Below, piece after piece: positions 4,745 to 63,145 of a DNA stretch of 64,000 nt. Position 1 is the stretch's first letter. Every line of letters starts with the position of its first letter. The notes beneath the pieces are model-generated. The model saw only the letters and a list, made by a program, of their open reading frames with translations. It searched no databases and had not been told where the DNA came from. The position numbers were made by a program, and so were the translations under genes. Source of the stretch: Carcharhinus amblyrhynchos (lineage: Eukaryota); contig OZ336878.1 in the NCBI GenBank assembly GCA_965287045.1, positions 48,546,001 through 48,610,000 on the forward strand. The letters run 5' to 3'.

Positions 4745-6297
4745 TACCCCATACGAGGCCAGGTATCTAGATGGGTGGAGAACTGGCTTGCTAAGAGGAG
4801 ACAGAGTAGTAGTGTAGGGGTCCTTTTCTAGCTGGAGGTCTGTCACTAGTGGTGTGCCGCAGGGCTCAGTACTGGGACCTCTTCTCTTTGTAGTATATAT
4901 AAATGACTTTGAAGAGGGAGTAAGTAGTATGATCAACAAATTTGCAGATGACACTAAGATGGCTGGATTGGCGGGCAGTGAGGAGCAGTGCCTGGCAATA
5001 CAACGGGATATTGATAGGCTGGTATATTGGGCAGATATATGGCAAATGGAGTTTAATCCGGATAAATGTGAGGTGATGCATTTTGGCCGGAATAATGTAG
5101 GGGGGAGTTATATGATAAAGGGTAAGCCTATAAAGAGTATAGAAACACAGCAAGTCCTGGGGGTGCAAGTGCACAAGTATTTGAAGGTGGCAGTACAAGT
5201 GGAGAAGGTTGTGAAGAAAGCCTATGGTATGTTAGCCTTTATAGGAAGGGGTATAGAATATAAGAGCTGGAGTCTAATGTTGCAGTTGTATAGAACGTTA
5301 AGCCGCATTTAGAGTACTGCGTCCAGTTCTGGTTGCCTTACTACCGGAAGGACGTGGAGACTCTGGAGAGAGTGCAGAGGAGGTTTACCAGGATGTTGCC
5401 TGGTATGGAAGGACTGGGTTATGAGGAAAGATTGAGCAAATTGGGGCTGTTTTCCCTTGAAAGACGGCGACTGAGGGGGGATCTAATTGAGGTATATAGA
5501 TTATAAAGAGTATAGGTAAACAGAGGTAAGCTATTTCCTATGTTAGAGACACACAGTACGAGGGGCCATGGGCTTAAGGTGAGGGGGGAGAGGTATAACA
5601 CAGATATTAGAGGGAGGTTTTTCACACAGAGGGTAGTGGGGGTATGGAATGCTCTGCCAAGTAAGGTGGTGGAGGCAGGCACGCTGGAGTTGTTTAAGAG
5701 TAACTTAGACAGGCACATGACTGGGTTGGAGATGGGAGGATATAGGAGATTGTTTTAAATAAGGTTCATTAGCATTGGGATGTCCCTGGTAATGTAAAAG
5801 GATGTGGTATGATAATAATGTTTTTCTCTTTTAATTCACAGGTTTTAAGTCGGTCTGCCTTGTTGTCCAACAAGGGGCATACACGCGATGGGTCGTACTT
5901 GGGCTGCTCTTGAATGTTCAAGAGTGGCCTAGTGCTTCATGTCGTTAGTGTGTGCTTAAACTGGACCAGATGCTGGGCAACACGACAGCTCAGTGACTAT
6001 CACTGTTTGCTGTGCAGACACATGGATTTGGGCCAGTGTCTGTGGGAGTTTGTGCATTCTCCCCGTGCTTGCGTGGGTTTTCTCCGGGTGCTCCGGTTTC
6101 CTCCCACACCCCAAAGATGTGCTATTAGGCTGATTGGAAGCAATAAATTGTCCCTTAATTAGTTTCCCTCAATGTGGATTGCCATAAAACAATAGATAAG
6201 GGTCATGGGTGGAGGAGGGGAATGGTAATGTTAAAATGGCGGCGCGGGCTCATTGGGCTGAAAGGCCTGTTTCCCGGGCTGTTTTTGTTCTTTGTTC
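4745..6297 (+). mobile_element. 5'-truncated CR1 LINE (decayed RT C-terminus) with extended structured 3' UTR
   Basis: ORFs 4854-5312 (PQGSVLGPLLF, KFADDTK) and 5540-5758 (FFTQRVVGVWNALP); ends in a GTTCTTTGTTC tail. Same subfamily as 23440-25529. Confidence 0.93.
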
Positions 6298-16619: not shown

Positions 16620-18580
16620 TTATTTGATTTGATTTATTATTGTCACATGTATTAACATACAGTGAAAAGTATTGTTTCTTGCGCGCTATACAGGGAAAAC
16701 ATACCATTCATAGAGAAGGAAATAAGAGTGCAGAATTGTAGTGTTACAGTCATAGCTAGGGTGTGCAGAAAGATCAACTTAATGCAAGGTAACTCCATTC
16801 AAAAGTCCGACAGCAGCAGGGAAGAAACTATTCTTGAGTCGGTTGGTACATGACGTCAGACTTTTGTATCTTTTTCCTGAAGGAAGAAGGTGGAAGAGAG
16901 AATGTCCAGGGTGCGTGGGATCCTTAATTATGCTGGCTGCTTTGCCGAGACAGCAGGAAGTGTAGATCGAGTCAATAGATGAGAGGCTAGTTTGCATGAT
17001 GGACTGAGATGCGTTCACGACCTTTTATAGTTCCTTGAGGTCTTGGGCAGAGCAGGAGTCATTACCAAGCTGTGATACAACCAGAAAGAATGCTTCCTGT
17101 AGTGTATCTGTGAAAGTTGGTGAGAGTCGTAGCTGATATGCCAAATTTCCTTAGTCTTCTGAGAAAGTAGAGGTGTTGGTGGGCTTTCTTAACTATAGTG
17201 TTGGCATGGGGGATCCAGGACAGGTTGCTGGTGATCTGGACACCTAAAAACTTGAAGCTCTCGACCCTTTCTACTTCATTGCAACTGATGTAGACAGGGG
17301 CATGTTCTCCTTTACACTTCCTGAAGTCAATGACAATCTCCTTCATTTTGTTGACATTGAGAGAGAGATTATTGTTGCTGCACCAGTCCACCAGATTCTC
17401 TCTCTCATTCCTGTACTCTCGTTAGTGTTTGAGATCTTACCTACTACGGTGGTGTCATTAGCAAACTTGAAAATCAAATTGGAGAGGAATTTTGCCGCAT
17501 TGTTATAGGTGTATAAGGAGTATATTAGGTGGCTGAGAACATAGCCTTGTGGGGCATCGGTGTGGAGGATGATTGTGGAGCAGGTGTTGTTGCCTATCCT
17601 TATTGATTGTGGTCTGAGAGTTAGGAAGTTCAGGATCCAGTCACAGAGGGAAGTGCCGAGGTCGAGGTCATGGAGTTTGGAGAGGAATAGTAGTGTTGAA
17701 GGCTGAGCTGTAGTCAACAAATAGGAGTCTGACATAGATGTCCTTGTTATCCAGATATTCCATGGTTGAGTGCAGGGCCAGGGAAATGGCGTCTGCTGTG
17801 GACCAGTTGTGGTGGTAGGCAAACTGTAGTGGATCTAGGTAGTCCGGGAGGCTGGAATTGACTTGTGCCGTGACTAATCTTTCAAAGCACTTCATAATGA
17901 TGAATGTAACAGATCCACCAGCCGATAGTCATTAAGGCACGCTTTTTGGTTTTTCTTAGAATCCGAGATGATTGTCATCTTCTTGAACCAGTTAGGGACC
18001 TCAGACTGTTGTAAAGAGAGTTTGAAGAGGTCTGTACATACGTCCGCCAGCTGATCCATGCAGGATCTGAGTGCACGCCCAGGCACCCTCATCCGGGCCA
18101 GTTGCTTTCCGTGGGTTGACCTTCAAGAAAGCTGCTCTGACATCTGCAGTGGTGACCCCAGGTACAGGTTCATCCAGGGCTTCCAGGGTGGAAGGCATGC
18201 TCTCGCTGACCTTTTGCTCAAAAAGGGCATAGAATGCATTGAGCTCATCAGGGAGGGGTGCGTTGGAGCCAGCGATTTTACATGCCTTCATCTTGTAGCC
18301 TGTTATGTCTTGCAGGCCTTGCCATATCGGTGGGGGTCAGCGTGACTAGCCTGGGACTCTAGGTTGGTCCATATTGTTTTTCAGCATCTTTGACGGATCT
18401 CCTTAAATTGTGTCTGACTTTCTCGTATAGGTCAGTGTCACCTAACTTGAACACCTCAGACCTGGACTTCAGCAAGCAGTGGATATCCCTGTTTATCCAT
18501 TGTTTCCGGTTGGGGAACATACAGATTTGCTTCTTTGGCACACAGTCTTCTACATACTTACTAATGAAGTCAGTTACTGT
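16620..18580 (-). mobile_element. Rex1/Babar non-LTR retrotransposon, 5'-truncated and frameshifted
   Basis: Minus-strand peptides [45 protein letters not shown] and KKAHQHLYFLRRLRKFG; ATCAA-repeat tail at ~16620. Confidence 0.9.
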
Positions 18581-22224: not shown

Positions 22225-23439
22225 TACAGTAGAGAAGGGGTTGGACGGCAGCAAAGTAATAATGATGCAAGGGAGTCAGTACTCGGGTAGCATACATATC
22301 AGAAAGGTCAAGTGAATGAAGGGAAGCAATCTGGAAAGCCACTGTCAAATTCAGTGGGTGGGTATTTGAGTACGGCTGGATTTATCATATTCTGGTGAAA
22401 ATGGAAAATGTTGACCCTTGGCCCAGGAAGCCAAAAGGATTACAAAAAGGTCAAAACTACTCTAGCTGCAGAAACACTGGCGCTATTAGAAGTGATAGGT
22501 ATGGTAGTGTACTTACTCTTGAATTCCAAAGGAAATCCCATACAGGCAGAATTCTGAGAAAGGTTTACCCTATGAAGGTTCATTCAACAGCAGTGTCACT
22601 GAAAAAACGTTGAGTGTTAACCTTACTAGTATAAAGGAAATGTTGGAATAAAAAGAGATCTCTAAAATAAAACTTGTTAATGCAAGTCACCAAATCTGGA
22701 TGAGCACTTAGATCCTGCACGGACCAGATGGCGCGGGTATCCGCAGGCATCCTTAATCTCTCTTTACACCCTGTCTGCTTCAGGAAGATGACCATCATCC
22801 CAATACCAAAAAAAAACGCCAGCAGCGTGCCATAGTGAAAAATATCTAGTGGCTCTGACATCCATTATGAAGTGCTTCAAAAGATTAGTCATAGCACGAA
22901 TCAATTTTAGCCTCCCAGATTGACTGGATCCAATAGTTTGTCTATCGCTGACTCAGGTTCACAGCAGATGCATGGCCCTGCACTTAACCCTGGAACACCT
23001 AGACAGCAAAGACACCCATGTCAGACTCCTATTTATTGACTATAGCTCAGAATTCCTACCATTATTCCTACAGAACTCACCTCCAAGCTCTGTGGCCTTG
23101 AGCTCAGCTCCTCCCTTTGTGACTGAATCCTAGATTTCCTAACCCACAGACTGCAATCAGTAAGGATAGGCAACAAGACCTACTCCATGATCATCTTCAA
23201 CATCATTGTTCCACAGGGCTGTATCCTCAGCCCCTTACTATCCTTATATACCTACAACTGTGGGGCCAAATTCCCCTCCAACTCAATTTGCTGATGAACC
23301 CCCGCAGTGGGTCAGATCTCAAAAATGATGAGATAGAGAATCCTTAACTGGTGCAGTGACAATAATCTCTCCCTCAATAACAAAACAAAGGAGATAGTCA
23401 TCAACTTCAGGGAACCTAGTGGAGAAAATGTCCCTGTCT

Positions 23440-25529
23440 AGGTCTGTTAGAGGGAGCTGAGGATCAGCTGCAGGAAATATCTATTACGAGGGAGGAAGTG
23501 CTAGGGCTTTTAGGTAGCGTAAGGACGGATAAAGCTCCGGGGCCTGATGGTATTTATCCCAGGCTGCTTAGGGAGGTGAAAGATGAAATTGCTGGGCCTC
23601 TGGCGCAAATCTTTGTCTCTTTTTTGGACACAGGTGAGGTCCCAGAAGACTGGAGGGTGGCAAATGTGGTACCGCTGTTCAGAAAAGGTAGTAGGGATAA
23701 CCCTGGGAATTATAGGCTGGTGAGTTTGACATCGGTGGTAGGGAAATTAATGGAAAAAGTACTTAGGGGTAGGATGTATGAGCATTTGGAGCGTTGCGGT
23801 CTGATTGGGGATACGCAACATGGCTTTGTTAGAGGGAGGTCTTGCCTTACGAATCTGGTGGAATTCTTTGAGGAGGTGACAAAAACGGTTGACGATGGGC
23901 AAGCCGTTGATGTCATCTATATGGATTTCAGTAAGGCGTTTGACAAAGTCCCTCATGGTAGGCTGGTAGAAAAGGTTAAGGCGCATGGGATACGGGGTCA
24001 GGTAGCTAGGTGGATTGAGAACTGGCTGGGCAATAGGAGACAGAGGGTAGTTGTGGAGGGGACTTTGTCCAGCTGGAGGCCAGTGACCAGTGGTGTGCCG
24101 CAGGGCTCGGTACTGGGACCTCTCCTCTTTGTAGTCTACATAAATGACTTGGAAGATAGCGTAGGTGGTGTGATCAGCAAGTTTGCTGATGACACCAAGA
24201 TGGCAGGGTTGGCGGGTACTGAAGTGGATTGTCAGGTGATACAACAGGATATAGATAGGTTGGTGCATTGGGCAGATAGGTGGCAGATGGAATTTAATCC
24301 TGACAAATGCAAGGTGATGCATTTTGGAAGGAATAATGTAGAGAGGAGCTATGTGATTAAAGGTAGACAAATTAGGAGTATAGAAACACAGAGGGACCTG
24401 GGAGTGCAGGTTCACAAATCCATGAAGGTTGTGACACAAGTGGAGAATGTTGTCAGGAAGGCTTATGGAATGCTAGCCTTTATAGGAAGAGGTACAGAGT
24501 TTAAAAGCTGCCGTCTAATGCTTCAGTTGTATAGAACGTTGGTTAGACCGCATTTGGAGTACTGCGTCCAGTTCTGGTCACCTTACTACCGGAAGGACGT
24601 GGAGGTTCTGGAAAGGGTGCAGAGGAGGTTTACCAGGATGTTGCCTGGCATGGAGGGGTTGGGTTACGAGGAAAGGTTGGAGAAACTGGGACTGTTCTCT
24701 TTGGAAAGACGGAGATTGAGGGGTGACATGATAGAGGTATATAAGATACTGAAGGGAATAGACAGGGTCAATAGTGAGAGACTGCTCCCTAGATTGGTTA
24801 CGAATACAAGAGGACATGATTTAAGGGTGAGGGGGGAGAGGTATAATTTGGATATGAGAGGAAGGTTCTTTACGCAGAGAGTAGTGGGGGTATGGAACGC
24901 GCTACCGAGTGGGGTGGTGGAGGCGGGAACGTTGGACTCGTTTAAGGTTCAGTTAGATAGGCACATGAGTGAAACGAGGATGGAGGGTTATGGTAGGGGT
25001 TATTGAATAAGGGTTAGAACCTCGGGAGACACCGGAAAGGCAGGCTTGTGATTAACGTTTTTGTCTTTTCACTCCGCAGGTGGAGGTCCACCTCGTTGTC
25101 AAACGAGGGGCATGCACACGGTGGGTCGTGCGTGGGCTGCTCCTGGAGGTTCTGGGAGTGGCCTAGTACTTCGTGTCGGTGTGTGTGCTTGATCCTGGAC
25201 CGGTAGACGGGCGCCGCAACAGCTCAGTGACTAGCACTGCTAGCTGTGCAGATACATGGATTTGGGCCTGTGTCTGTGGGAGTTTGTGCATTCTCCCTGT
25301 GGTTGCGTGGGTTTCCTCCGGGCGCTCCGGTTTCCTCCCACACCCCAAAGATATGCTCTTAGGCTGATTGGTTTTACCAAATTGACACTATTCTCCCCTG
25401 AATCTGGCTAAGTCAGGGGTTCTATTTGTAGATACGCAGGGTAGAATAGGTGTAGGGTGATGCGGCGGCGCGGGCTTGTTGGGCCGAAGGGCCTGTTTCC
25501 CGTGCTGGGTTGTTCTTTGTTCTTTGTTC
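23440..25529 (+). mobile_element. 5'-truncated young CR1 LINE with extended structured 3' UTR
   Basis: Uninterrupted 502-aa RT ORF, then a ~520-nt 3' UTR ending in GTTCTTTGTTCTTTGTTC. Confidence 0.95.
23498..25006 (+). CDS. CR1 ORF2 reverse transcriptase (N-terminally truncated, open to the natural stop)
   Basis: KAPGPDGIYPRLL, NYRLVSLTS, QHGF, MDFSKAFDKV, GVPQGSVLGP, FADD, YCVQFWSP, FFTQRVVGVWNALP. Confidence 0.9.
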   Translation: MLGLLGSVRTDKAPGPDGIYPRLLREVKDEIAGPLAQIFVSFLDTGEVPEDWRVANVVPLFRKGSRDNPGNYRLVSLTSVVGKLMEKVLRGRMYEHLERCGLIGDTQHGFVRGRSCLTNLVEFFEEVTKTVDDGQAVDVIYMDFSKAFDKVPHGRLVEKVKAHGIRGQVARWIENWLGNRRQRVVVEGTLSSWRPVTSGVPQGSVLGPLLFVVYINDLEDSVGGVISKFADDTKMAGLAGTEVDCQVIQQDIDRLVHWADRWQMEFNPDKCKVMHFGRNNVERSYVIKGRQIRSIETQRDLGVQVHKSMKVVTQVENVVRKAYGMLAFIGRGTEFKSCRLMLQLYRTLVRPHLEYCVQFWSPYYRKDVEVLERVQRRFTRMLPGMEGLGYEERLEKLGLFSLERRRLRGDMIEVYKILKGIDRVNSERLLPRLVTNTRGHDLRVRGERYNLDMRGRFFTQRVVGVWNALPSGVVEAGTLDSFKVQLDRHMSETRMEGYGRGY

Positions 25530-25611: not shown

Positions 25612-25935
25612 GGGTGCCAATATGTCAGCGATTAGCACTGTTACCTCACAGCACCAGGGGCCCGGGTTGAATTCCAGCCAAGGGTGACTGTCTGTGTGGA
25701 GTTTGCGCATTTTCCCCATGTCTGCTTGGGTTTCCTCCAGGTGCTCCAGTTTCCTCCCACAGTCCAAAGATGTGTGGGTTAGGTTGACTGGCCATGGTAA
25801 ATTGATTTTAGTACCAGGGGACTAGGAGGGTAAATACAGGGAGTTACAAAGATAGGGCCTGGGTGGGATTGTTGTCAGTGCAGGCTCGATAGGCTGAATT
25901 GCCTCCTTCTGCATTGTAGGGATTCTATGATTCTG
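25612..25935 (+). mobile_element. HE1-type V-SINE
   Basis: Head TTAGCACTGTTACCTCACAGCACCAGGGGCCCGGGTTGAATTCC, then V-domain, then tail GCCTCCTTCTGCATTGTAGGGATTCTATGATTCT. Confidence 0.85.
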
Positions 25936-26170: not shown

Positions 26171-26497
26171 CCCTTAGGAGTCCTTAGGACTAGAGGGCAC
26201 AGCCTCAAGATAAAGGGGGGGGCGGTTTAGAACGGAGTTGAGGAGGAACTTCTTCACTCAAAGGGTGGTGAATCTCGGGAATTCTCTGCCCATTGAAGTG
26301 GTGGAGTCTGCCTCGCTCAATATTTTTAAGACGTGGGTTGATAGGTTTTTGATAGGCAAGGGGATTAAGGGTTATGGGGAGAGGGCGGGAATGTGGAACT
26401 GAGCCACGACAGATCAGCCATGATCTTATTGAATGGCGGGGCAGGCTTGAGGGGTTAGATGGCCTACTCCTGCTCCTATTTCTTATGTTCTTATGTT
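26171..26497 (+). mobile_element. Very short 3' fragment of the young CR1 family
   Basis: Close match to 27095-27405; TTATGTTC tail; short TSD (C)TCCC in the host Rex1. Confidence 0.9.
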
Positions 26498-26650
26498 CTC
26501 CCATCCACTGACTCAGTCTATACTTCCCACTGCCTTGGAAAAGGAGCCAGCCTAATCAAGGACGCCACACACCCCAGATATACTCTCTTCCCATCTTCTT
26601 CCATCGGGGAAAAAGGATTCAAAAGGTCTGAGGATACATACCAACCAATT

Positions 26651-27405
26651 GGCGAAAAACTGCAGCAGGCGACGGTGCAGAGGGACCTCGGGGTCCTTGT
26701 GCATGAGTCGCAAAAACCCAGCCTGCAGGTGCAGCAGGTGGTCAGGAAAGCTAATGGGATGCTGGCCTTCATAGCGAGGGGGATTGAATACAAAAGTAGG
26801 GAGGTCTTGCTGCAGCTGTATAGGGCATTGGTGAGACCGCAGCTGGAGTACTGTGTGCAGTTTTGGTCGCCGCACTTACGCAAGGATATTTTGGCCTTGG
26901 AGGGAGTGCAGAGGAGGTTTACTAGGCTGATGCCGGAGTTGAGGGGGGTGAGCTATGAGGAGAGGCTGAATAAACTAGGCTTGTACTCGTTGGAGTTTAG
27001 AAGAATGAGGGGAGATCTCATTGAGACGTACAAGATGATGAATGGGATGGATAGGATAGAGGTGGAGAGACTCTTCCCGCTCAGAAAGGACAGTAGGACT
27101 AGGGGGCACAGCCTCAAGATAAAGGGGGGGCGGTTTAGAACGGAGTTGAGGAGGAACTTCTTCGCTCAAAGGGTGGTGAATCTCTGGAATTCTCTGCCCG
27201 TTGAAGCGGTGGAGGCTGCCTCGCTAAATATTTTTAAGACGCGGGTTGATGGGTTTTTGATAAGCGAGGGGATTAAGGGTTATGGGGAGAGGGTGGGAAA
27301 GTGGAACTGAGCCATGACAGATCAGCCATGATCTTATTGAATGGCGGGGCAGGCTCGAAGGGCTAGATGGCCTACTCCTGCTCCTATTTCTTATGTTCTT
27401 ATGTT
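26651..27405 (+). mobile_element. 5'-truncated young CR1 LINE
   Basis: Open RT C-terminus (QRDLGVLV...FFAQRVVNLWNSLP...GKWN*); (TTATGTTC)n tail; TSD CAATT on both sides. Confidence 0.93.
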
Positions 27406-46950: not shown

Positions 46951-48890
46951 ATAAGAACATAAGAACATAAGAAATAGGAGCAGGAGTAGGCCATCTAGCC
47001 CTTCGAGCCTGCCCCGCCATTCAATAAGATCATGGCTGATCTGTTGTGGCTCAGTTCCACTTTCCCGCCCTCTCCCCATAACCCTTAATCCCCTCTCTTA
47101 TCAAGAACCCATCAACCCGCTTCTTAAAAATATTTAGCGAGGCAGCCTCCACCACTTCAACGGGCAGAGAATTCCAGAGATTCACCACCCTTTGAGTGAA
47201 GAAGTTCCTCCCCAACTCCGTTCTAAACCGCCTCCCCTTTATCTTGAGGCTGTGCCCCCTAGTCCTACTGTCTTTTTTGAGCGGGAAGAGTCTCTCCACC
47301 TCTATCCTATCCATCCCATTCATCATCTTATACGTCTCAATGAGATCTCCCCTCATTCTTCTAAACTCTAACTAGTACAAGCCTAGTTTATTCAGCCTCT
47401 CCTCATAGCTCAATCCCCTCAACTCCGGTATCAGCCTAGTAAACCTCCTCTGCACTCCCTCCAGGGCCAAAATATCCTTGCGCAGGTGCGGCGCCCAAAA
47501 CTGCACACAGTACTCCAGCTGCGGCCTCACCAATGCCCTATACAGCTGCAGCAAGACCTCCCTACTTTTATATTCAATCCCCCTCGCTATGAAGGCCAGC
47601 ATCCCATTCGCCTTCCTGACCACCTGCTGCACCTGCAAGCTGGGTTTTTGCGACTCATGCACAAGGACCCCGAGGTCCCTCTGCACCGTCGCCTGCTGCA
47701 GTTTTTCGCCACGTAAGTAATAGTCCTTCCTACCATTCTTCCTACCAAAGTGGACCACCTCACACTTGCCAACATTAAATTCCATTTGCCATTTCCTGGC
47801 CCATTCGCCCAGCTTATCTAGATCCTTCTGCAGACTCTCCACACCCTCCGCACAATTTGCCTTTCCCCCAATCTTGGTGTCATCAGCAAATTTCGACACC
47901 CTGCACTCGGTTCCCTCCTCCAGATCATCTATATAAATGGTAAATAGCTGAGGCCCCAGCACCGACCCCTGGGGCACCCCACTAGTCACCAACCGCCAAT
48001 CCGAATAGCATCCATTGACCCCCACTCTCTGCCTCCTATTTGACAACCAATCCTCTATCCACGCTAACACCCTACCCCCAACTCCATGTCCCCTGACCTT
48101 CTGCAATAACCTCTTGTGAGGTACCTTGTCAAACGCCTTCTGAAAATCCAGAAAGACCACATCCACCGGCTCTCCTCTATCCACTGCCCTAGACACATCC
48201 TCATAGAACTCCAGTAAATTTGTCAGACACGACTTCCCTTTAATGAAACCGTGTTGCGTCCGCCCTATCAAGCAATTCCCTTCAAGATGCCTCGCAATTT
48301 CCTCCTCAATGACGGATTCTAACATTTTACCTACCACAGACGTTAAACTAACCGGCCTGTAATTCCCCGCCTTTTGCCTGGCACCCTTCTTAAACAACGG
48401 CGTAACATTAGCCGTTTTCCAATCTTCCGGCACTTCCCCGGAATCCAGCGACGTCTGGAAAATAACCACCAAGGCATCCACTATAACCTCCGCCATTTCT
48501 TTCAGAACCCTCGGATGCATTCCATCCGGTCCTGGGGACTTGTCCACAATCAGCCCCTCCAGTCTGTCGAGCACCACCTCTCTAGTAACAGTAATGTCAT
48601 TAAGACCCTCCATTCCTACCACCTTTCCATCTCTAACACCCGGCAAATTATTCACGTCCTCCTCCGTGAAGACAGAAACAAAAAAGTTATTCAAGACCTT
48701 AGCCATATCCCCATCCCCTACCACTAGCTCCCCTTTCTCATCCTCTAAAGGACCAACGTTCACCCTAGCCAGCCTCTTCCTTTTTATATATTTATAAAAA
48801 CTCTTGCTATCCTTTTTTATATTAAGTGCTAGCCCAGCCTCATAGCTTCTCCTACCCTCCTTTATCAACTTCTTTGTCAATCTTTGTTGA
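46951..48890 (-). mobile_element. 5'-truncated young CR1 LINE
   Basis: 502-aa RT ORF 47372-48880 plus its continuation 47051-47356, separated by one premature stop; (ATAAGAAC)n tail at 46951. Confidence 0.95.
47051..48880 (-). pseudogene. CR1 ORF2 RT with a single nonsense mutation at ~47372
   Basis: Plus strand reads AACTAGTACAAG here but AACGAGTACAAG in the sister copy at ~61645, converting a Ser codon to a stop. Confidence 0.85.
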
Positions 48891-51800
48891 CATTGAGCTC
48901 ACACTTTCTCAGATTTGGACTCCCAGCCACTGTTGCATGTTCCAGGACCATTGGCTAGTTCTTCCCAATTCCATACAGCTTTTCCTCACAGCACAGGTGT
49001 AGTGTCACAAGCTGAATGAGGAATACAGGTCTAACCAGTGATTGTGTGTAGTAACTCCAGGAGATGGTTATGAAGAAACTGTGCTTTTGTTGCATTAAAT
49101 GAAAATAAACACGAACCACAAGCCTATGGTGAACACAACATTCCCAACCTAGTCTAAAAGGATAATGGACCCACTCCAGGGTCTTGCTTTATACAGGGAT
49201 GTGAGCTCCCTCTATTTGGCTAATTGCCAATCCCCAGGGAGCTCGTATTCAATAAGCCCAACTGGGTAGTCAATTAGTGATTCCCCATGCAGATCCTGGG
49301 AGTTACCATTCTCCTCCCTCTCCAAATTCAAGGGTTCTTCCTCACTCCTTGGGCACCAGGGCCAGCTTTGTCTTTTGGCCCAGCGTCTCTTTCCTATTTT
49401 GTACTTCACCTGGTGAGGCAGGGTGTGCATTATCAGCAAGTGCCTTGTTTTTAACAACCAAAGAAGTAATATTGGATGTGGTTCTTTGTCACCAATGGCT
49501 TCTGCTGTGTGAGTCTCCATTTCAGAGTCTGAGATCTCATAGCATTTCAGAGCCTCCCATTGGTAGAAGTGTTTTGTCTTTGCTCTGTGTGCTTGGAGTC
49601 TCCAATGGCATACTCGCCGAGTTGGCCACTTCTATTGATAGCTCTCACATTTTAGGTGGTTCACGTTTTCTTTGTACTGCGTCTCCAACTTCTACTATGT
49701 AGGACACTGGCCCTGTTTCAAAGAGAATTGTTCCTGGTGTCCATTGGGTGCTGCCTCCAAAATTTTGCAGTAAGACCATGTCTCTCTCCAAAAAAACTCT
49801 GTTTTTATTTCATCATGGCCCCTTTTTTGGGTTTCTTGCTTCTGTACAACTCTTGTATTTAGATCTGGGAATGTAAGGTTCAGCTTGGTCCATAGGCACA
49901 TGCCCATTAGTAACTTGGTCAGAGCTACATCTGTCATTACATGAGGCATCATTCAATAATTGGAGAGAAAGACTTGCCAGTTGGGTGTCTACAGACCCAT
50001 GGTGTGTTTTTCATTCCCCTTTTAAAGATTCGTCCCATGTCTGTTCGATGATGGGTGGTAAGGCTGTGCAGGTATGCCATATTCCATTTGTTTCTGTAAA
50101 TGTCTTTTTTATATATGTTTATTGAAAATTTTCTTATACTTTACATAGCAAACAAATGTAGATACCGATCCACACAGTGCTCGCATGTACATTCCAACGT
50201 GACTGGGCCAGGGGACAAGCCCCTGGTACCCCCAGCACCCACCCCGTCCAAGTCCCATCTAATTGTATCAGTAATAAAGGTAATAATATAAAAACAAAAA
50301 GGCAAAGGGATGCCGCTGGAGAATCAACTGAGCGCCCAAACAGCCTACGCTCTAAACTAGCAAACAGAGAAAAGAGAGACAGTAAAGGAGAAGAAAGAGA
50401 GTGAGAGGAAAAGAGAAAAGCTCTTGTGTTTGTCCCCGCACCTCGGCAGGGTAGGCGGGTGTACTCAAGTAAAAGGCCAGGGCACGTCCAACAATCAGGG
50501 GAGGGGGGGATTCTGTGGGAACACCCAGGGTCCTGGGGCCATTGGGTATTTATTCACCCGGCTCCAATTGCAGCATCCCTACATGCACTCTAAATGGTTA
50601 CTAGGTCTTCTAGAACCTAGTGGACCTCTGTAGCGTGCACCTCATCTTCTCCAGCTTAATGGTATCTACCACCTCCTTCACCCACTGTGAGTGTGTCGGG
50701 GCTGCACCTGATTTCCACCTAAACAGGATTAGTCTTCTTGCCAAGAGAGTAATGAAAGCTACAAAATCCATTTGGAATTTCAGCAGTGGCCGAAATGACC
50801 CCAAACAGGCAGCTTGGGGGGATGCACTTATGTCCCAATCTAACATTCGTCTCAAATATCAATATCCAGTAGTTACACAGTGATGGGCAAGCCCAGAACA
50901 TCTATTAGAGGAAGGTGGGAGCTTGCCATCACAAATGAGGCTTGTGCCTGGGTACATTCTAGAGAGTCTAATCCTAGTTTGATATGCTCTATAAAGGAGT
51001 TCACATTGTATGTATCACACCCAGCTTGGTACATATTGAGGAAGAGTGTACTCGATGCAGCACTATGTCCCAAAACTCTTCCGAGAATTCCTCCCCCAGA
51101 TCTCTTTCCCATAAAGATTTAACCACTGATAGAGAGTTTTGTTAGGACAGAATTTGAGAATAAAGAACATTAATGATACCATGCATAGTATAGAAGACAC
51201 TAATAACATGTCAATGGAGGCACGAGGTTGGAAATTGAGGGTCAGCTCTACGCACAAAGTCTTGAATTTGCAAATATCTGAAAAAGTGAGTTGCAGGTAA
51301 AGCAAACATCCACCATCTTCTGGAATGACGCAAATACGCCATCCACAAACAGGTCCCGGAATGTTCTGATCCCGTGCTTGACCCATATGTTGAAGGCACC
51401 ATCCAAGAAATAAATGGTTAGCGGACACTGGGGAGGCCAATGACCAGGCCTGAAATCCAAAGTGGAGTCTAAATTGCATCCAAATTCTAAGAGTTGACTT
51501 GATAAGTGCACTGCTAGTATATTGTGAGGACAGAAAATTTACCGGGGAACACATCAAGGCAACCAAAGAAGTCGGAGCACAGGAGGCAGATTCTGACTGC
51601 AACCAACAAGGAACTTCTTGTTGCCTCTCTCTCTGCACCCAACACACTACTGCTCTCATATTGGTTACCCAATAATAAAATAGAAAATTGGGCAATCCCA
51701 TACCACCACCCAGCCACCACCACCCCACCCCAATCATGTTTAGGACTTTGCACGACTGTTCTCCGCATTATTGGGTTTTTTCTATTCCAGGCAAAGCTTG

Positions 51801-54800
51801 AAATCAGCCAATCAAGGATTTGGGGATGAACACCAGGATGCACTGAAACAGACATAAAAACTTTGGTGGTATGTTCATCTTCATTGCATTGATACAGTCT
51901 GCTAATGATAACGGGAGGATGGACCAATGTTTGAGGTCCTGTTCCATCCGCCCCATGAGTGGAGTGAAGTTAGCTCCAAAGAGGCCACAAAATTTGTTAG
52001 TCACTTGCACTCTCAAGTAAGTAAACTGCCTAACTTGAAAGGCAGGGTGTGGAGTGGGAATGCCGCTGCATTCAAAGGAAGGAGCTCACTCTTATTCAAG
52101 TTAAGCTTGTACCGCAAAATACAACCAAACCTCTCTATTATAGGTAAGACTTCTGGAATCGAGTTGGACAGGTCACCGACAATAGTAGATCATCCGCATA
52201 CAGAGATACTGTCTGTTCAATTCATTCTTCTACCAATTCCCACTGCTCACTTGCTGTTGCGAAAAGCTGCAGCAAGAGGTTCAATAGCAATGACAAATAA
52301 CAGGGGGGAGAGGGGGCATCCTTGCCTAGTGCCCCAAGACAAAGGGCAAAAGGCTGAATGCACATCGTTTGTCTGGACTGGGGCTAGAAGGGTGGAGTAC
52401 AGTATTTTGATCCAGGAGATGAGCTTTGGGCCAATCCCAAACCTCCCAAGAGCAAAAAATAAATAATCCCATTCCACCCAATCAAACAGTTTTTCAATGT
52501 CCAGCGAGATTAACATCTCTGGTAGCTTGGAGGTGGCAGACACATTCATAATGTTAAACAGTTGCCGAATATTCGAGTACATGTGTCTATTTTTAATGAA
52601 CCCAGTCTGGTCAGGTAAGATGATAGAGGGCAGAATGTCTTCCAAGCGAATGGCCAGAGTCTTAGAGATCAGTTTGAGATCCATATTCAGCAATGAGGTC
52701 GGTCTGTAAGAGCTGCAGATTTGCAGGTCCTTATTCTTTTTAAGCATAAGCGAAATTGTCATTTGCCTCAAAGCCTGTAGGACAGGGTGGTTCTCATATG
52801 ATTCATTGATCTTGTGCAGTAGCAGGGGAGTCAACCTATCCACAAATGTTTTGTACAATTCGATGGGGTACCCATCTGGTCCCAGACATTTCTCACTCAG
52901 CATAATTCTGGCCATCCTAACAATTTCTTCAACATCAATTGGTTTCTCCTGTGTTGTGGCCTTTCCCTGTCCACCACAGGGAGATTCAATGCCCCAAAGA
53001 ACTCTTGAAAGTCCACTCATTGGCAGTAGTCACTGAGCTGTAAAAGTTGAGTAAAGGTTTATAAAGGGTTTACCAAGAAGTGGGAAGTAGAAGATCTGGT
53101 GTCAAGGAGTGGTAAGCCCAAAACGCTACATTAGTATTTCCCTCCTTCCTGCCTCCTCGCACCAAAAAAAAAGGCCACTGCAAGAAGGTAAAAGTGAAGG
53201 TAAGAGTTTTATAAATTTTCTCAAACAATTTAATTGATGCTTGAAATGTCGGTTGGTAGGGTTAAGTGTTGCACTTGTGAGATGTGGGAGATCCGTGACA
53301 CTTCCAGCACTTAGGAGCATGAAAGAGGCGGAAAGCATCGTAGATAGGAGCTTTAGAGGTGTGGTCACACTCAAGGTGCAGGCAGATGGATGGGTGACAG
53401 CCAGAAGGGGCAGGCATTAAGTGCAGGAATTCCCTGTTGTCATCCCCCTCTTTAACAAATATAACATTTTGGATACTGCTGGGGGAGATGGGCTATCAGG
53501 GGATAACAGCAGCAGCAGCCAAAGCAGTGGCACCACGGCTAACTCTGTTGTTAAACAGGAAGGGATAAAAAGGATTAGAGCAATAGATATAGGGAACTCT
53601 ATAATTAGGGGTGCAGAAAGGCACTTCTGTGGACATGAAAGAGACTCCAGAATGGTATGTTGCCTCCCTGGTGCCAGGATGTCTCTGAATGGACAGAAAG
53701 CATTCTGAAGTGAGAGGGTGAACAGCCAGAGGTCGTGGTACATATTGGTACTAACGACATAGGTAGGAGCAGTGTTGAGGTCCTGCAGCAGCAGTTTAGG
53801 GAGTTAGGTAGAAAGTTAAAAAAGCAGGACCCCTAGGGTAATCTGGCATGTGACATGGAGTAATCTCAGGATTACTCCATGTCACATGCTAGTAAGGCTA
53901 GGAATAGAAAGATAGTGCAGCTCAACATGTGGCTAAACAGCTGGTGTAGGAGGGGGGAGGTTTCAGATATCTGGACCATTGGGGTCTATTCTGAGTCAGA
54001 TGGGACCTGTACAAGAAGAACAGGTTGTTATCTAAACTGGAAGGGCATAAACATTCTGGCCGGGAGGTTTGCTAGTGTCACACGGGAGGATTTAAACTAA
54101 TTTGGCAGGGGGGTGGGAACCAAAGCAAAGGTGAATTAGCTGAAGACAAACCAGAGAATACAGCCAGTAAGAGAGAAACAGCAGGCAGGGTGGGATTGTA
54201 ATCAAAGAGGGTCTGGTGACTAAAGTGCATCTGTTTCAATGCGAGAAGTGTAATAGGTAAGGCAGATGAACTTAGAGCTTGGATTCGTACGAGGAACAAC
54301 AATGTTGTTGCCATTATAGAGATTGGTTAAGGGAAGGACAGGATTGGCAGCTTAACATTCTAGGATACAGGTGTTTCAGGCAGGATACAGGGGGATGTAA
54401 AAGGGTGGGGGAGTTGCACTACTGGTAAAGGAGAATATCACAGCTGTACTCCGGGAGGACACCTCAGAGGGCTCATACAGCGAGGCAATATATGTAGAAC
54501 TCAGGAATAGGAAAGGCGTAGTCAAAATGTTGGGGGTTTACTATAGGCCTCCCAACTGCCAGCAGGAAATAAAGGAACAGATATGTAGCCAGATTTTGGC
54601 AAGGTGTAAAAGTGACAGGGTTGTTGTGGTGGGAGATTTTAACTTCTCCTATATTGACTGAGACTCACTTAATGCTAGGGGTGTGGATGGGGCAAAGTTT
54701 GTAAGGAACATCCAAGAGGGCTTCTTGAAACAATATGTAGATAGTCCAACTAGGAAAGGGGCCATACTGGACCTGGTATTAGGGAATGAGCTCAGCCAGG

Positions 54801-55897: not shown

Positions 55898-58800
55898 TAT
55901 AGGGGAGGTCCCAGAGGATTGGAGAATAGCCAATGCTGTTCCTTTGTTTAAGGAGGGTAGCAAGAATAATCCAGGTAATTACAGGCCAGTGAGCCTTACA
56001 TCAGTGGTAGGGAAATTATTGGAGAGGATTCTTCGAAACAGAATTTATTGCCACTTGGAAATAAGTGGATGTATTAGTGAGAGGCAACATGGTTTTGTGA
56101 TGGGAAGGTCGTGTCTCATCAACTTGATTGAGTTTTTCAAGGAAGTGACAAAGATGATTGAGGGTAGGGCAGTGGAGGTTGTCAACATGGACTTCAGTAA
56201 GGCCTTTGATGAGGTCCCTTATGGCAGACTGGTACAGAAGGTGAAGTTGCATGGATCCCAGGTGAGCTGGCAAGGTGGATACAAAACTGGCTTGGTCAAA
56301 GAAGAGAGGGTAGCAGTGGAAGGGTGTCTGAATGGAGGGCTGTGACAAGTGATGTTCCTCAGGGATCAATTCTGGGACCTTTGCTAATGCACTGATAGAT
56401 GTTTGTAATATATATATAAATGATTTGGAGGAAAATGTAACTGATTTGATCAGTAAATTTGTGGATGACACAAAGGTTGGTGGATTTGCAGATGGTGTTG
56501 AGGACCATCAGAGGATACAGCAGGATATCAATCAGTTGGAGACTTAGGTGGAGAGATAGTAGATGGATTTTAATTCGGACAAATGTAAGGTAATGCACTT
56601 TGGAAGATCTAATACAGATAGGAAATATACAGTAAATGGCAGAACCCTTAAGAATATTGATAAGCAAAGGGATCTGGGTGTATAGGTACACAGGTCATTG
56701 AAAGTGGCAATGCAGGTGGAGAAGGTAGTCAAGAAGACATATGGCATGCTTGCCTTCATTGGCCAGGGCACTGAGTTTAAAAACTGGCGAGTCATATTGC
56801 AGCTTTATAGAATCTTAGTTAGTTAGGACGCACTTGGAATATAGTGTTCAATTCTGGTTACCACACTACCAGAAGGATGCGAAGGCTTTGGAGAAGGTAC
56901 AGAAAAGATTTACCAGGATGTTGCCTGGTATGGAGGGCATTAGCTATGAGGAGAGGCTGGAGAAACTTGGTTTGTTCTCACTGAAACAATGGAGGTTGAG
57001 GGGCGACCTGATAGAAGTCTACAAGATTGAGAGGCATGGACAGAGTGGATAGTCAGAAGTTTTTCCCAGGGTGGAAGAGTCAATTTCTAGGGGGCACAGG
57101 TTTAAGGTGCAAAGGGCAATGTTTAAAGGAGATGTACAAGGCAGAGTTTTTACACAGAGGGTGGTGGGTGCCTAGAACTCATTGCTGGGGGAAGTAGTAG
57201 AAGTGGATACAGTAGTGACTTTTAAGGGGCATCTTGACAAATACATGAATAGAATGGGAATAGAGGGATATGGAACCCAGAAGGGTAGGGGGTTTTAGTT
57301 CAGTCGGGCACCATGGTCAGTGCAGACTTGGAGGGCTGAAGGGCCTGTTCCTGTTCTATAACTTTCTTTGTTCTTTGTTCTTTAGACGTCCCTAAACCAT
57401 TCATTTATTCGCTGCGGATCAATAGAGACCCCATTCGGAGTCAGCATTTGTGGTATTAGACTTTTGGCAGAGAATTGGTGCAGCTGATGAGCTTGCTTGC
57501 TTGCCTTGTCCCCATGCTCATAGTGTGTATACTTAGATTTGAACAGCATTTCTTCTGCTTGACACGAGGACAATGTCTCAAACTCCGCCTGTAGTAGTAA
57601 ACGTTTCTTATATACCTCCGGGGCCTACAGTGTACATGGCATCAACTTGGGCAATATGCCCCAGCAATTCCAATAACCTCCCACCTCTCTGCTTTGCCTT
57701 ATGCGCTGAATAAGATATGATCTGGTCCCTCAAATAAGCCTTCAATGTCTCCCATAAGGTAGCTGCCAAGACTCCCGGAGCATCATTAAGCTCTAAGAAA
57801 TCGTTGATCTGTGTTAACAGAAATCTAACAAATTTATCATCTGAGAGCAGACAAGTATTAAATCGCCAAGACCTACGGGGGCCCACTGTCCTCCCCACTA
57901 CCAAGTCCATTGTCAAGAGAGCATGGTCCAAGATTACAATGGTTTCATTGGAACATGAGAGCACAGCAGGGAGCAGCTTATTGTCGACCAAAAAGTAATC
58001 TATTTGCAAATACGTTCGGTGGACAGGTGAAAAATAATATTCCCTTCTGATGGGGTTAAGAAACCTCCATGGGTCCGAAACCACATATTCAGTGAGAAAT
58101 GATTTAATCATTTCTGCCAACTTGGAAGATACAGCAGTTCTGGGGAGGAGCGGTCAAGGGCAGGATTCAACCAACAGTTGAAATCTCCGCCCAGTATCAA
58201 CTGAATTCAAATCTGGAAGTAGCATGATAAAGGACTGGAAAGAGTTTTCACAGTTCCAGTTGGAGCATACACGTTGGCTAACACCAGAGACGTCCCATAT
58301 AATTTACCCGTGACAATGATGTATCGGCCATTTGAGTCAGAAATAACATTGGCTACTATCAAGGATAAGGACTTTGGGTAAGGATTGCCACCCCCTGCAG
58401 CTTGGTGTGAAAAGTTAAGTGAAAGCATTGACTCTCCCACCCTCTACAGAGCCTAAAATAATCCACTGGTCTGACATGTCTCTCTTGGAGAGATGCAATT
58501 TGGGTACCCATCTGTCAAAAATGCTAAAATATCTTAGCGTGCTTAATTGGATGATTTAATCCCAACATTCCAGCTAGTGAAATTGATCGCTCTGAGGTTG
58601 GAGCGTAAGGGCCTCCTAGCCAGCATCCCACATTTCTAAAGGTGGCCTAGTATCCTTCCTCACCGGGTAGTCTCCCCCAACCGCTGACATCAGCAAATGC
58701 CACACCCCAGGGCCCCAACCACCACCCTCTCCGCCGACCACAGGGAACCAACCAGGAGAAAGAGAGGGTGGGCTTAAAAGAGGCCAAACCACACACACAG

Positions 58801-61226: not shown

Positions 61227-62353
61227 AAGAACATAAGAACATAAGAAATAGGAGCAGGAGTAGGCCATCTGGCCCTTCGAGCCTGCCCCGCCATTCAATA
61301 AGATCATGGCTGATCTGTCGTGGCTCAGTTCCACTTTCCGGCCCTCTCCCCATAACCCTTAATCCCCTCTCTTATCAAAAACCCATCAACCCGCTTCTTG
61401 AAAATATTTAGCGAGGCAGCCTCCACCACTTCAATGGGTAGAGAATTCCAGAGATTCACCACCCTTTGAGTGAAGAAGTTCCTCCTCAACTCTGTTTTAA
61501 AACGCCCCCCCTTTATCTTGAGGCTGTGCCCCCTAGTCCTACTGTCTTTTTTCAGTGGGAAGAGTCTCTCCACCTCTATCCTATCCATCCCATTCATCAT
61601 CTTATATGTCTCAATGAGATCTCCCCTCATTCTTCTAAACTCCAACGAGTACAAGCCTAGTTTATTCAGCCTCTCCTCATAGTTCAACCCCCTCAACTCC
61701 GGTATCAGCCTAGTAAACCTCCTCTGCACTCCCTCCAAGGCCAAAATATCTTTGCGCAGGTGCGGCGCCCAAAACTGCACACACTACTCCAGCTGCGGCC
61801 TCACCAATGCCCTATACAGCTGCAGCAAGACCTCCCTACTTTTATATTCAATCCCCTTCGCTATGAAGGCCAGCATCCCATTCACCTTCCTGACCACCTG
61901 CTGCACCTGCAAGCTGGGTTTTTGCGACTCATGCACAAGGACCCCCAGGTCCCTCTGCACCGTCACCTGCTGTTTTTCGCCACGTAAGTAATAGTCCTTC
62001 CTACCATTCTTCCTACCAAAGTGGACCACCTCACACTTGCCAACATTAAATTCCATTTGCCATTTCCTGGCCCATTCGCCCAGCCTATCTAGATCCTTCT
62101 GCAGACTCTCCACACCCTCCACACAATTTGCCGTTCCCCCAATCTTGGTGTCATCCGCAAATTTCGACACCCTACACTCGGTTCCCTCCCCCAGATCATC
62201 TATATAAATGGTAAAAAGCTGAGGCCCCAGCACCGACCCCTGGGGCACTCCACTAGTCACCATCCGCCAATCCGAATAGCACCCGTTGACCCCCACTCTC
62301 TGCCTCCTATTTGACAACCAATCCTCTATCCACGCTAACACCCTACCCCCAAC
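61227..62353 (-). mobile_element. 5'-truncated young CR1 LINE inserted in Gypsy pol
   Basis: Close match to 46951-48085; (ATAAGAAC)n tail; short TSD AACT(A). Confidence 0.93.
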
Positions 62354-63145
62354 TACCCAGGCTTCCCCCAGGATAATGCCATCTTCTATGCCTAATTCCA
62401 GGCATTTTGTCACATACAACTTCAAGTCTTGTGCCAGACATGCCTGCTTTCCTCCATTTAAGATCATGTAGTTTAGTTTTGCCAGCTTGGAGATGTTTTG
62501 AGGCCAAGCTTTTATTTGTTTTGCCAAAATTGACAAAGTGCCCATAAAATTTAATGTTATTATTACTTCATCCATTTTTGATGGTGACGGAAAGCTTCTG
62601 GGCAAAGGTAAGCAACTCAGAATAAGCAACTCAGGACATGTACGTCGGCAACTTGTGTCCGTGGTCTATGCCCCATACCCATAAGTGCCTAATAATAGTG
62701 CCCATCACTGTCTTCGAGCTGATGCTATAACAGGGATCATTTACTGCTTGGAAAAAGGACTGTGGTCTGTTACGATTGTACACATGCATACACAGGTATA
62801 CGATACATGTATTGATGGGATTTCTTCACTGTGAAGATCATTGCCAAAACCCTCTTTTTCTATTTATGCATGCCTTTTTCCGCATCGGCTAGTGTCCTTG
62901 AGGCATATATAATCGGGCGCTCCATCCCATTGTTCCATCGATGCGATAATACTGTACCTATCCCGTAAAGAGAAACATCACATTATGACCAATGGTCTTT
63001 CTGGGTTGAAATGGGTCAATACGTTGTCTGACTGCAGTTTGTGTTTTATCCTCACAAGAGTATCCTCCTGTGATTCTTACCATGCCCTGTTCTGATGTTT
63101 TTAACAACGTATGTAGGAAGTAAGGTTGCCAAGTTTGGAATGAAT

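Follow-up and report, generated by a model that had tools for sequence, protein, structure and literature searches.

A constrained 3' UTR module combining a predicted splice acceptor, a folded RNA domain, and a SINE-derived part in a CR1 LINE lineage of Carcharhinus amblyrhynchos

Two diverged copies of a CR1 LINE in the window (the whole 64-kb stretch of DNA analyzed here) carry additional sequence between the ORF2 stop and the tail. What is this sequence, and what might it do for the element? A sequence-only reading of the window had put the additional length at ∼430 nt and had described within it a ∼115-nt multibranch RNA under selection. The length was borne out: the 3' UTR is ∼520 nt long, compared to ∼85 nt in the CR1 ending near 57380 (a difference of ∼435 nt), and that CR1 has the same tail type as the two copies. 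The ∼115-nt structure, here called domain I, is real, but the unit is larger and starts at a conserved splice acceptor. Overlooked were this predicted 3' splice site, which lies directly upstream, and the source of the 430 extra nt, the greater part of which comes from a SINE that was captured and remodelled. The module runs from the 3' splice site through a 117-nt three-way junction and a captured V-SINE-like element to the normal CR1 tail, and its parts are as follows (a slash marks the splice point).

23420..25006, + strand: 3' part of CR1 ORF2 (reverse transcriptase) in the 5'-truncated copy 1, a 528-aa open frame
25007..25051, + strand: post-stop linker of copy 1, diverging at about the neutral rate (12/38 sites differ between subfamilies c1a and c2a)
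25052..25080, + strand: predicted 3' splice site of copy 1, with branch-like TTAAC (A at 25055), U/C tract, and CAG/G
25080, + strand: predicted start of the 3' exon, copy 1
25085..25201, + strand: domain I of copy 1, a 117-nt three-way junction, supported by fold, constraint, and placement test
25215..25301, + strand: domain II of copy 1, predicted to form a four-way junction from a remodelled tRNA-like SINE head and the first part of the SINE core, with the Pol III B box no longer present
25264..25355, + strand: V-SINE-like conserved core of copy 1, common to the free SINEs in the window (7/92 sites differ)
25461..25529, + strand: CR1 tail hairpin and (TTCTTTG)n end of copy 1
5815..5842, + strand: predicted 3' splice site of copy 2 (subfamily c2a), whose ORF2 stop is at 5756-5758
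5852..5967, + strand: domain I of copy 2
5981..6297, + strand: domain II, V-like core, variable part, and tail of copy 2
57270..57385, + strand: for comparison, the short 3' UTR of a CR1 family that lacks the module but has this tail type
25612..25935, + strand: for comparison, a free SINE of tRNA origin that has the core found in the module and a B box close to intact
near 1500, 8660, 34010, and 63135: other free SINEs of the same type

The predicted acceptor lies 70 to 86 nt after the stop in most subfamilies and 155 to 165 nt after it, behind unrelated sequence, in most c3 copies. Domain I begins 5 to 10 nt downstream of the acceptor and consists of a closing stem, a tetraloop hairpin, and a long G·U-rich stem with a conserved UC/UU internal loop. 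The part of the terminal exon that is predicted to fold tightly amounts to ∼280 nt.

By its proteins and its tail, the element is a CR1 LINE. Full-length copies are ∼4.6 kb long and encode ORF1 (esterase) and ORF2, and one of them (L095) matched RVT_1 (2e-31), Exo_endo_phos_2 (3e-11), and Lipase_GDSL_2 (8.5e-5, below the curated cutoff). We assume that this genome and the SINEs in the window belong to the HE1/HER1 group. HE1 and HER1 form a SINE-LINE pair of sharks and rays (PMC3747384). Our element resembles the HER1-type CR1 LINE in its ORF1 (a zinc-finger-like start followed by a GDSL/SGNH esterase), in the endonuclease-RT of ORF2, in its tail hairpin and microsatellite end, and in its 5' truncation. 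It differs in that the autonomous LINE has a SINE head and core in its own 3' UTR, under constraint, and in that this captured SINE sits behind a splice acceptor and a further 117-nt domain. A description of the module was absent from the literature searched, including a recent preprint (bioRxiv 10.1101/2025.02.02.635956), although the family itself may be catalogued in Repbase or Dfam.

The two window copies represent different subfamilies of one CR1 lineage, with 1,313 and 2,382 candidates in the 2.9-Gb genome. Exact patterns matched 5,959 times (a hairpin pattern), 1,864 times (a second pattern), and 16,263 times (a downstream motif), compared to 0 matches for reversed-pattern controls; the lineage thus has at least 16,263 motif matches, and the copy alignment shows eight or more subfamilies. 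Among the first 100 downstream-motif matches (30 loci, 48 stretches), every copy that was long enough had domain I upstream, and the rest were 5' truncated. Young copies of this near-intact LINE are 98 to 99% alike. The module and ORF2 trees agree in their main groups, with three c3 ORF branches inflated by flanking DNA, and the comparison of copies shows that the module was inherited vertically with ORF2. Elsewhere, a pattern search gave 15 metagenome matches, none of which was matched by the profile. Runs labelled as at least six other organisms contain a fifth or more of the words of the stretch, and some contigs include domain variants that are absent from this genome; thus, the module probably predates the species.

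Lineage copies are often arranged in tandem or nested in other CR1 copies (L162, L066-L067, and L023). At their 5' end, monomers of ∼190 nt follow one another in tandem, and every monomer contains a TATA box along with ETS-like CCGGAAGT sites (L095:3806-4200, L163:998-1380, and L167). From the TATA box of the upstream monomer it is ∼30 nt to an initiator-like TCATT with which the following monomer starts. The mouse L1 promoter is a monomer relay, and the tandem monomers here suggest a promoter of that kind.

Domain I folded into a three-way junction in both copies (z, −6.14 and −6.21), and none of 200 shuffles was as stable. The antisense strands folded far worse (z, −2.2 and −3.3), and z ranged from −2.7 to −6.5 in eight natural copies. 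All of the stems named in the sequence-only reading were present in both copies. Its further claim, that differences between the copies preserve pairing, held in part. Two-sided changes between subfamilies were found at three pairs (25094:25105, CG/UG/UA; 25143:25155, CG/UG/UA; 25146:25152, GC/GU/AU), each passing via a G·U intermediate present in another subfamily, but several changes that had been read as compensatory are private CpG decays of copy 2. For instance, the C-G to U-A swap proposed for one hairpin relied on a letter at 5872 that is private to copy 2. In 23 of the 30 copies nearest to copy 2, position 5872 is a G, so the P2 pair in the subfamily of that copy is U·G and not U-A. 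Similarly, 5920 is G in 25/30 and 5856 is C in 21/30 of these copies (copy 2 included in all three counts), and for copy 1, 21 of its 30 nearest copies have C at 25153.

When pairs were counted over hand-made subfamilies (121 copies left once 4 duplicates and 2 unclassified had been removed), 16 subfamily states kept the pair and 3 broke it, compared to 70 and 73 for private changes (P = 0.006), the structure having been derived from the same subfamilies. With an a priori structure of 39 core pairs and unsupervised clusters from 180 independent copies, the counts were 16/6 versus 36/40 (P = 0.05) or 16/7 versus 53/45 (P = 0.24), and against transitions only, P was 0.6 and 1.0. Six to seven subfamily-level states break a domain I pair. 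In nine natural copies, 96.8% of 403 cells pair, compared to 38 to 48% when slid. Covariation, which the sequence-only reading had itself proposed as a check, did not reach significance: the score on the nine natural copies was attained by 49 of 500 shuffles.

Constraint was clearer. Between c1a and c2a, 55 of 146 four-fold ORF2 sites differ (38%), compared to 17 of 115 sites in domain I (15%), 5/30 in the acceptor, 5/46 in the SINE head, and 7/92 in the core, while the interleaved linkers differ at 12/38, 9/19, and 29/93 sites (31 to 47%). Module blocks therefore diverge 2.5 to 5 times more slowly than four-fold sites and the linkers do not, and the most constrained parts are the SINE head and the V-like core. 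Conserved blocks with neutral linkers between them argue against a recent block transfer. Further, when substitutions matched for type were placed at random, a domain as stable as the real one arose in only 0 to 3 of 400 trials in each of six deep subfamily comparisons, which share a branch and are not independent; two shallow pairs were not significant (17/400 and 75/400). Thus, the idea of a structured RNA under selection in the master elements is upheld by constraint and by the placement test, and not by classical covariation. Judged on these comparisons, the domain I fold is real and constrained, with covariation suggestive only.

The 5' ends of copies offer a further view of the fold. They are widely spread, with no single common position, yet 7 independent ends fall at the 3' foot or on the 3' strand of domain I and 0 in its 5' half (P ∼ 0.01, post hoc), a pattern to be expected if the reverse transcriptase stalls at stems formed on its template. 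The UC/UU internal loop (25125-25127 with 25170-25172), bordered by one G-C pair, persists in almost every subfamily and is a candidate protein-binding motif.

Rfam covariance models, another check that had been proposed, gave 0 matches at gathering scores in the 64-kb window, and around either copy only chance-level matches appeared at E values up to 10 (best E, 0.29, a miRNA model). An origin from an HDV-like, hammerhead, or hairpin ribozyme or from 5S, 7SL, or an snRNA was set aside, as none had an Rfam match.

A U2-type 3' splice site has a branch motif 20 to 40 nt upstream, a pyrimidine tract, and YAG/G. The site after ORF2 has each of these features and is predicted to be such an acceptor: all nine clusters have a branch-like T-R-A-Y at about −25 (−24 to −27), a U/C tract, and CAG/G. 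The CAG/G is invariant across the clusters, changes in the tract are mostly from pyrimidine to pyrimidine, and YAG/G is kept in 143 of 151 scorable copies; the sequence upstream of the acceptor varies between clusters in length and content. Scored by a simple count and not by a trained model, this site was the best acceptor in five of six full-length copies, and it is mutated in the sixth.

A strong donor, AG/GTGAG (donor 2), lies 50 to 70 nt before ORF1 in all four subfamily groups aligned, where it is kept while the sequence after it diverges, and the c1 groups have a second donor near the 5' start. With a donor in the 5' UTR and an acceptor after ORF2, ORF1 and ORF2 would lie inside a predicted 3.9-kb intron. 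Among 100 donor-2 sites listed (of 357), 14 rows look unrelated; the 86 element-like rows comprise 67 with the donor, 15 with recurring donor-less variants, and 4 with single changes. A donor-less element (L066/L067) keeps an intact acceptor, and the acceptor can outlast donor 2. A strong donor, CTG/GTGAGT, is also present in the 5' UTR of one CR1 from a different family, L096, ∼170 nt before its ORF1 (L096:2285-2300), so donors are not specific to the module, and they may be general in the CR1s of this genome. The monomer end (L095:3980-3990 and the L163 monomer junction) has ATACTCACC, which is complementary to a nearby donor, GGTGAGT, and resembles the 5' end of U1 snRNA; it may mask donor 1.

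Traces of the spliced product were sought in the genome and in contigs. None of the 100 donor-2 sites listed (of 357) read through into the 3' exon, and searches for donor-acceptor joins gave 0 matches, 5 matches, 6 matches, and 1 unrelated match, none of them a join. No run listed as containing the stretch is recorded as RNA. Among the joints and loose ends listed, contigs of presumed-RNA runs had no donor-to-acceptor joint and no loose 5' UTR end at the acceptor. Contig depth rose across the acceptor ∼39-, 22-, and 7-fold in three presumed-RNA runs, compared to ∼2.4-fold in a large probable-DNA run, but contigs cannot show transcript levels and the RNA status of the runs is a guess; a few variant letters dominate the two strongest rises, which points to single expressed loci.

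Several other readings were considered and rejected. A short intron right after the ORF2 stop had 0 retrocopy matches, and its donor was not conserved. Trapping of host exons followed by their retroposition was also weighed: the copies beginning at the acceptor number four, which by a rough estimate does not exceed what truncation alone accounts for. Protein coding in the 3' exon was dismissed because frames and ATG are not conserved; in the predicted spliced product, indels of 1, 4, and 5 nt separate subfamilies and leave no conserved reading frame. Long-range masking of the U tract by the end of the core is not conserved: it reached −8.3 kcal/mol in one subfamily only, with −2.4 to −5.5 in five others.

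The SINE-derived part, 25215-25460, includes a central V domain common to the free SINEs in the window. Mismatches of the tRNA-like head were counted against the A and B box consensus. In the module, the head has 2 mismatches in the A box and at least 4 in the B box, versus 0 to 2 in free copies, and a 19-nt deletion against the free SINEs, so that this part would no longer be an active Pol III unit. The module heads have a predicted four-way junction (z, −2.3 to −3.9 in six copies, compared to −0.8 to +0.8 in four free SINE heads), with one A-U/G-C swap at 25218:25298. By eye, 25302-25330 is close to bivalve V-SINE core rows and to a V-SINE primer in a published supplement (PMC4824008). Compared with the V-SINE superfamily, which it resembles in this core, the module carries the core in a Pol II LINE transcript, has lost the B box, and has a head predicted to form a four-way junction. 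The function of SINE central domains is given as unknown in the same source (PMC4824008). We infer that capture took place by template switching, in which a CR1 reverse transcriptase began with an RNA that had a SINE end and then moved to a CR1 mRNA; such a chimera would keep the tail common to the SINE and the CR1.

Our preferred reading, to which we assign a probability of roughly 0.4, is that the conserved terminal exon acts in cis on the full-length, unspliced CR1 RNA, in its maturation, stability, or export. The acceptor would recruit early spliceosome factors (U2AF/SF1), marking the last exon as in a cellular pre-mRNA, and the stems 5 to 10 nt beyond it would hold back the last step of splicing or serve as a binding site for an export or stability factor. 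The intron-retaining CR1 RNA would then reach the cytoplasm, be translated, and be copied. We favor a cis role because selection acts on the master elements, because all copies found derive from unspliced RNA, and because the acceptor can outlast donor 2. Of the functions named by the sequence-only reading, stability (or export) remains the likeliest; recruitment of the reverse transcriptase is not favored, as the usual tail hairpin is intact and common to a family without the module.

The closest parallels are the CTE of M-PMV and the hepadnaviral PRE/WPRE, which are structured and act in cis from the 3' part of the RNA. They too belong to reverse-transcribing elements whose RNAs retain introns, and they serve export, splicing control, and stability of such RNAs (PMC5341730). 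The module differs from them in that its host is a non-LTR retrotransposon and its role is predicted. The lack of sequence or Rfam similarity to CTE or PRE counts against the cis role, as does the success in the window of CR1 families that lack the module. Also against it are the fragile pair-level covariation, the placement test in shallow pairs, the 5' UTR donor in a CR1 of another family, and the unconserved masking of the U tract. Evasion of HUSH was considered separately and is not favored; in one study, a stuffer flanked by splice sites did not protect (PMC8770142).

In the main rival reading, the same sites would be used outright. If the 5' UTR donor were spliced to the acceptor, the 3.9-kb intron with ORF1 and ORF2 would be removed and a noncoding structured RNA of 550 to 750 nt released; this ORF-less RNA would be an off-switch (for instance, somatic) or a decoy for host RNA sensors or silencing. 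The persistence of AG/GTGAG despite the diverging sequence after it (intact in 67 of the 86 element-like rows listed), an acceptor that scores best in five of six full-length copies, and a predicted product without a conserved reading frame are all in keeping with such splicing, and splicing of L1 RNA inhibits retrotransposition (PMC5860796). We nonetheless consider it doubtful. A spliced RNA would keep the tail that the reverse transcriptase recognizes, yet no spliced retrocopy was found in the searches made, which counts against splicing since spliced L1 RNAs do leave retrocopies (SpIREs; PMC5860796). Moreover, donor 2 is dispensable in some multicopy sublineages, and, host tolerance aside, it is hard to see how masters could be selected for an RNA that leaves no copies. 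L1 itself is a partial parallel, being a LINE with 5' UTR donors and internal acceptors (PMC5860796), but its spliced RNAs leave dead-end retrocopies, whereas none were found here, and the acceptor here follows ORF2 and is conserved in the subfamilies.

A tentative combination of the two, on balance improbable, treats the coding region as a regulated 3.9-kb intron, with the captured SINE and the junction choosing between an exported genome RNA and an ORF-less structured RNA. If so, a non-LTR element would have a retrovirus-like program of spliced and unspliced RNAs, and the role of the V-SINE core would have a first handle.

It is also conceivable, though unlikely, that the structures bind ORF1p, ORF2p, or host RNP factors in packaging, cis preference, or priming. 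The V-like core would then benefit LINE and SINE alike, which would suit the strong constraint on core and head and the presence of the core in successful free SINEs, and the splice-site appearance would reflect a U-rich protein site or a relic. This leaves the invariant CAG/G and the branch motif at −24 to −27 unexplained, and the usual tail hairpin, which is enough for other families, has stayed intact. Further, judging by the distribution of 5' ends in domain I, the stems seem to hinder reverse transcription.

Very unlikely, in our view, is that the module is neutral and has merely been carried along since a single capture from a host pre-mRNA (intron end, exon, and SINE). A single template switch would account for the order of parts, and the weak formal covariation fits a passenger, but the idea is largely refuted by blocks that diverge 2.5 to 5 times more slowly than four-fold sites while linkers do not; in addition, the head no longer has its B box, and its predicted fold has become stable. 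Self-cleaving ribozymes occur in non-LTR elements, and domain I has a compact multibranch fold with a nested closing stem, but a ribozyme (one of the functions named by the sequence-only reading), here freeing a SINE-like 3' RNA, is very unlikely given no Rfam ribozyme match at E values up to 10, no room on inspection for an HDV-type P1/P3 pseudoknot, no hammerhead core, no fixed 5' end among copies, and the fact that cleavage in the 3' UTR would part the ORFs from the tail on which copying depends.

The usual view is that LINEs steer clear of splice signals and that SINEs borrow LINE tails. The lineage described here is the reverse case: a successful LINE took in a SINE, kept its promoter-less core under selection, and kept an acceptor after ORF2. 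Because the LINE is young and near-intact, its SINE central domain is open to assay with deletion and compensatory mutants, and its thousands of strong acceptor copies could trap host transcripts.

The window also contains another young CR1 family (47372-48898 and 61325-62665, − strand, and 26459-27400), whose copies are 94 to 97% alike and have a short 3' UTR with a ATTTCTTATGTTCTT-type end and without the module. Other non-LTR fragments lie at 17343-17834, 22700-23420, 52247-53029, and 57608-58153, and from the look of their translations, we take these to be L2/Rex-like and L1/Tx1-like.
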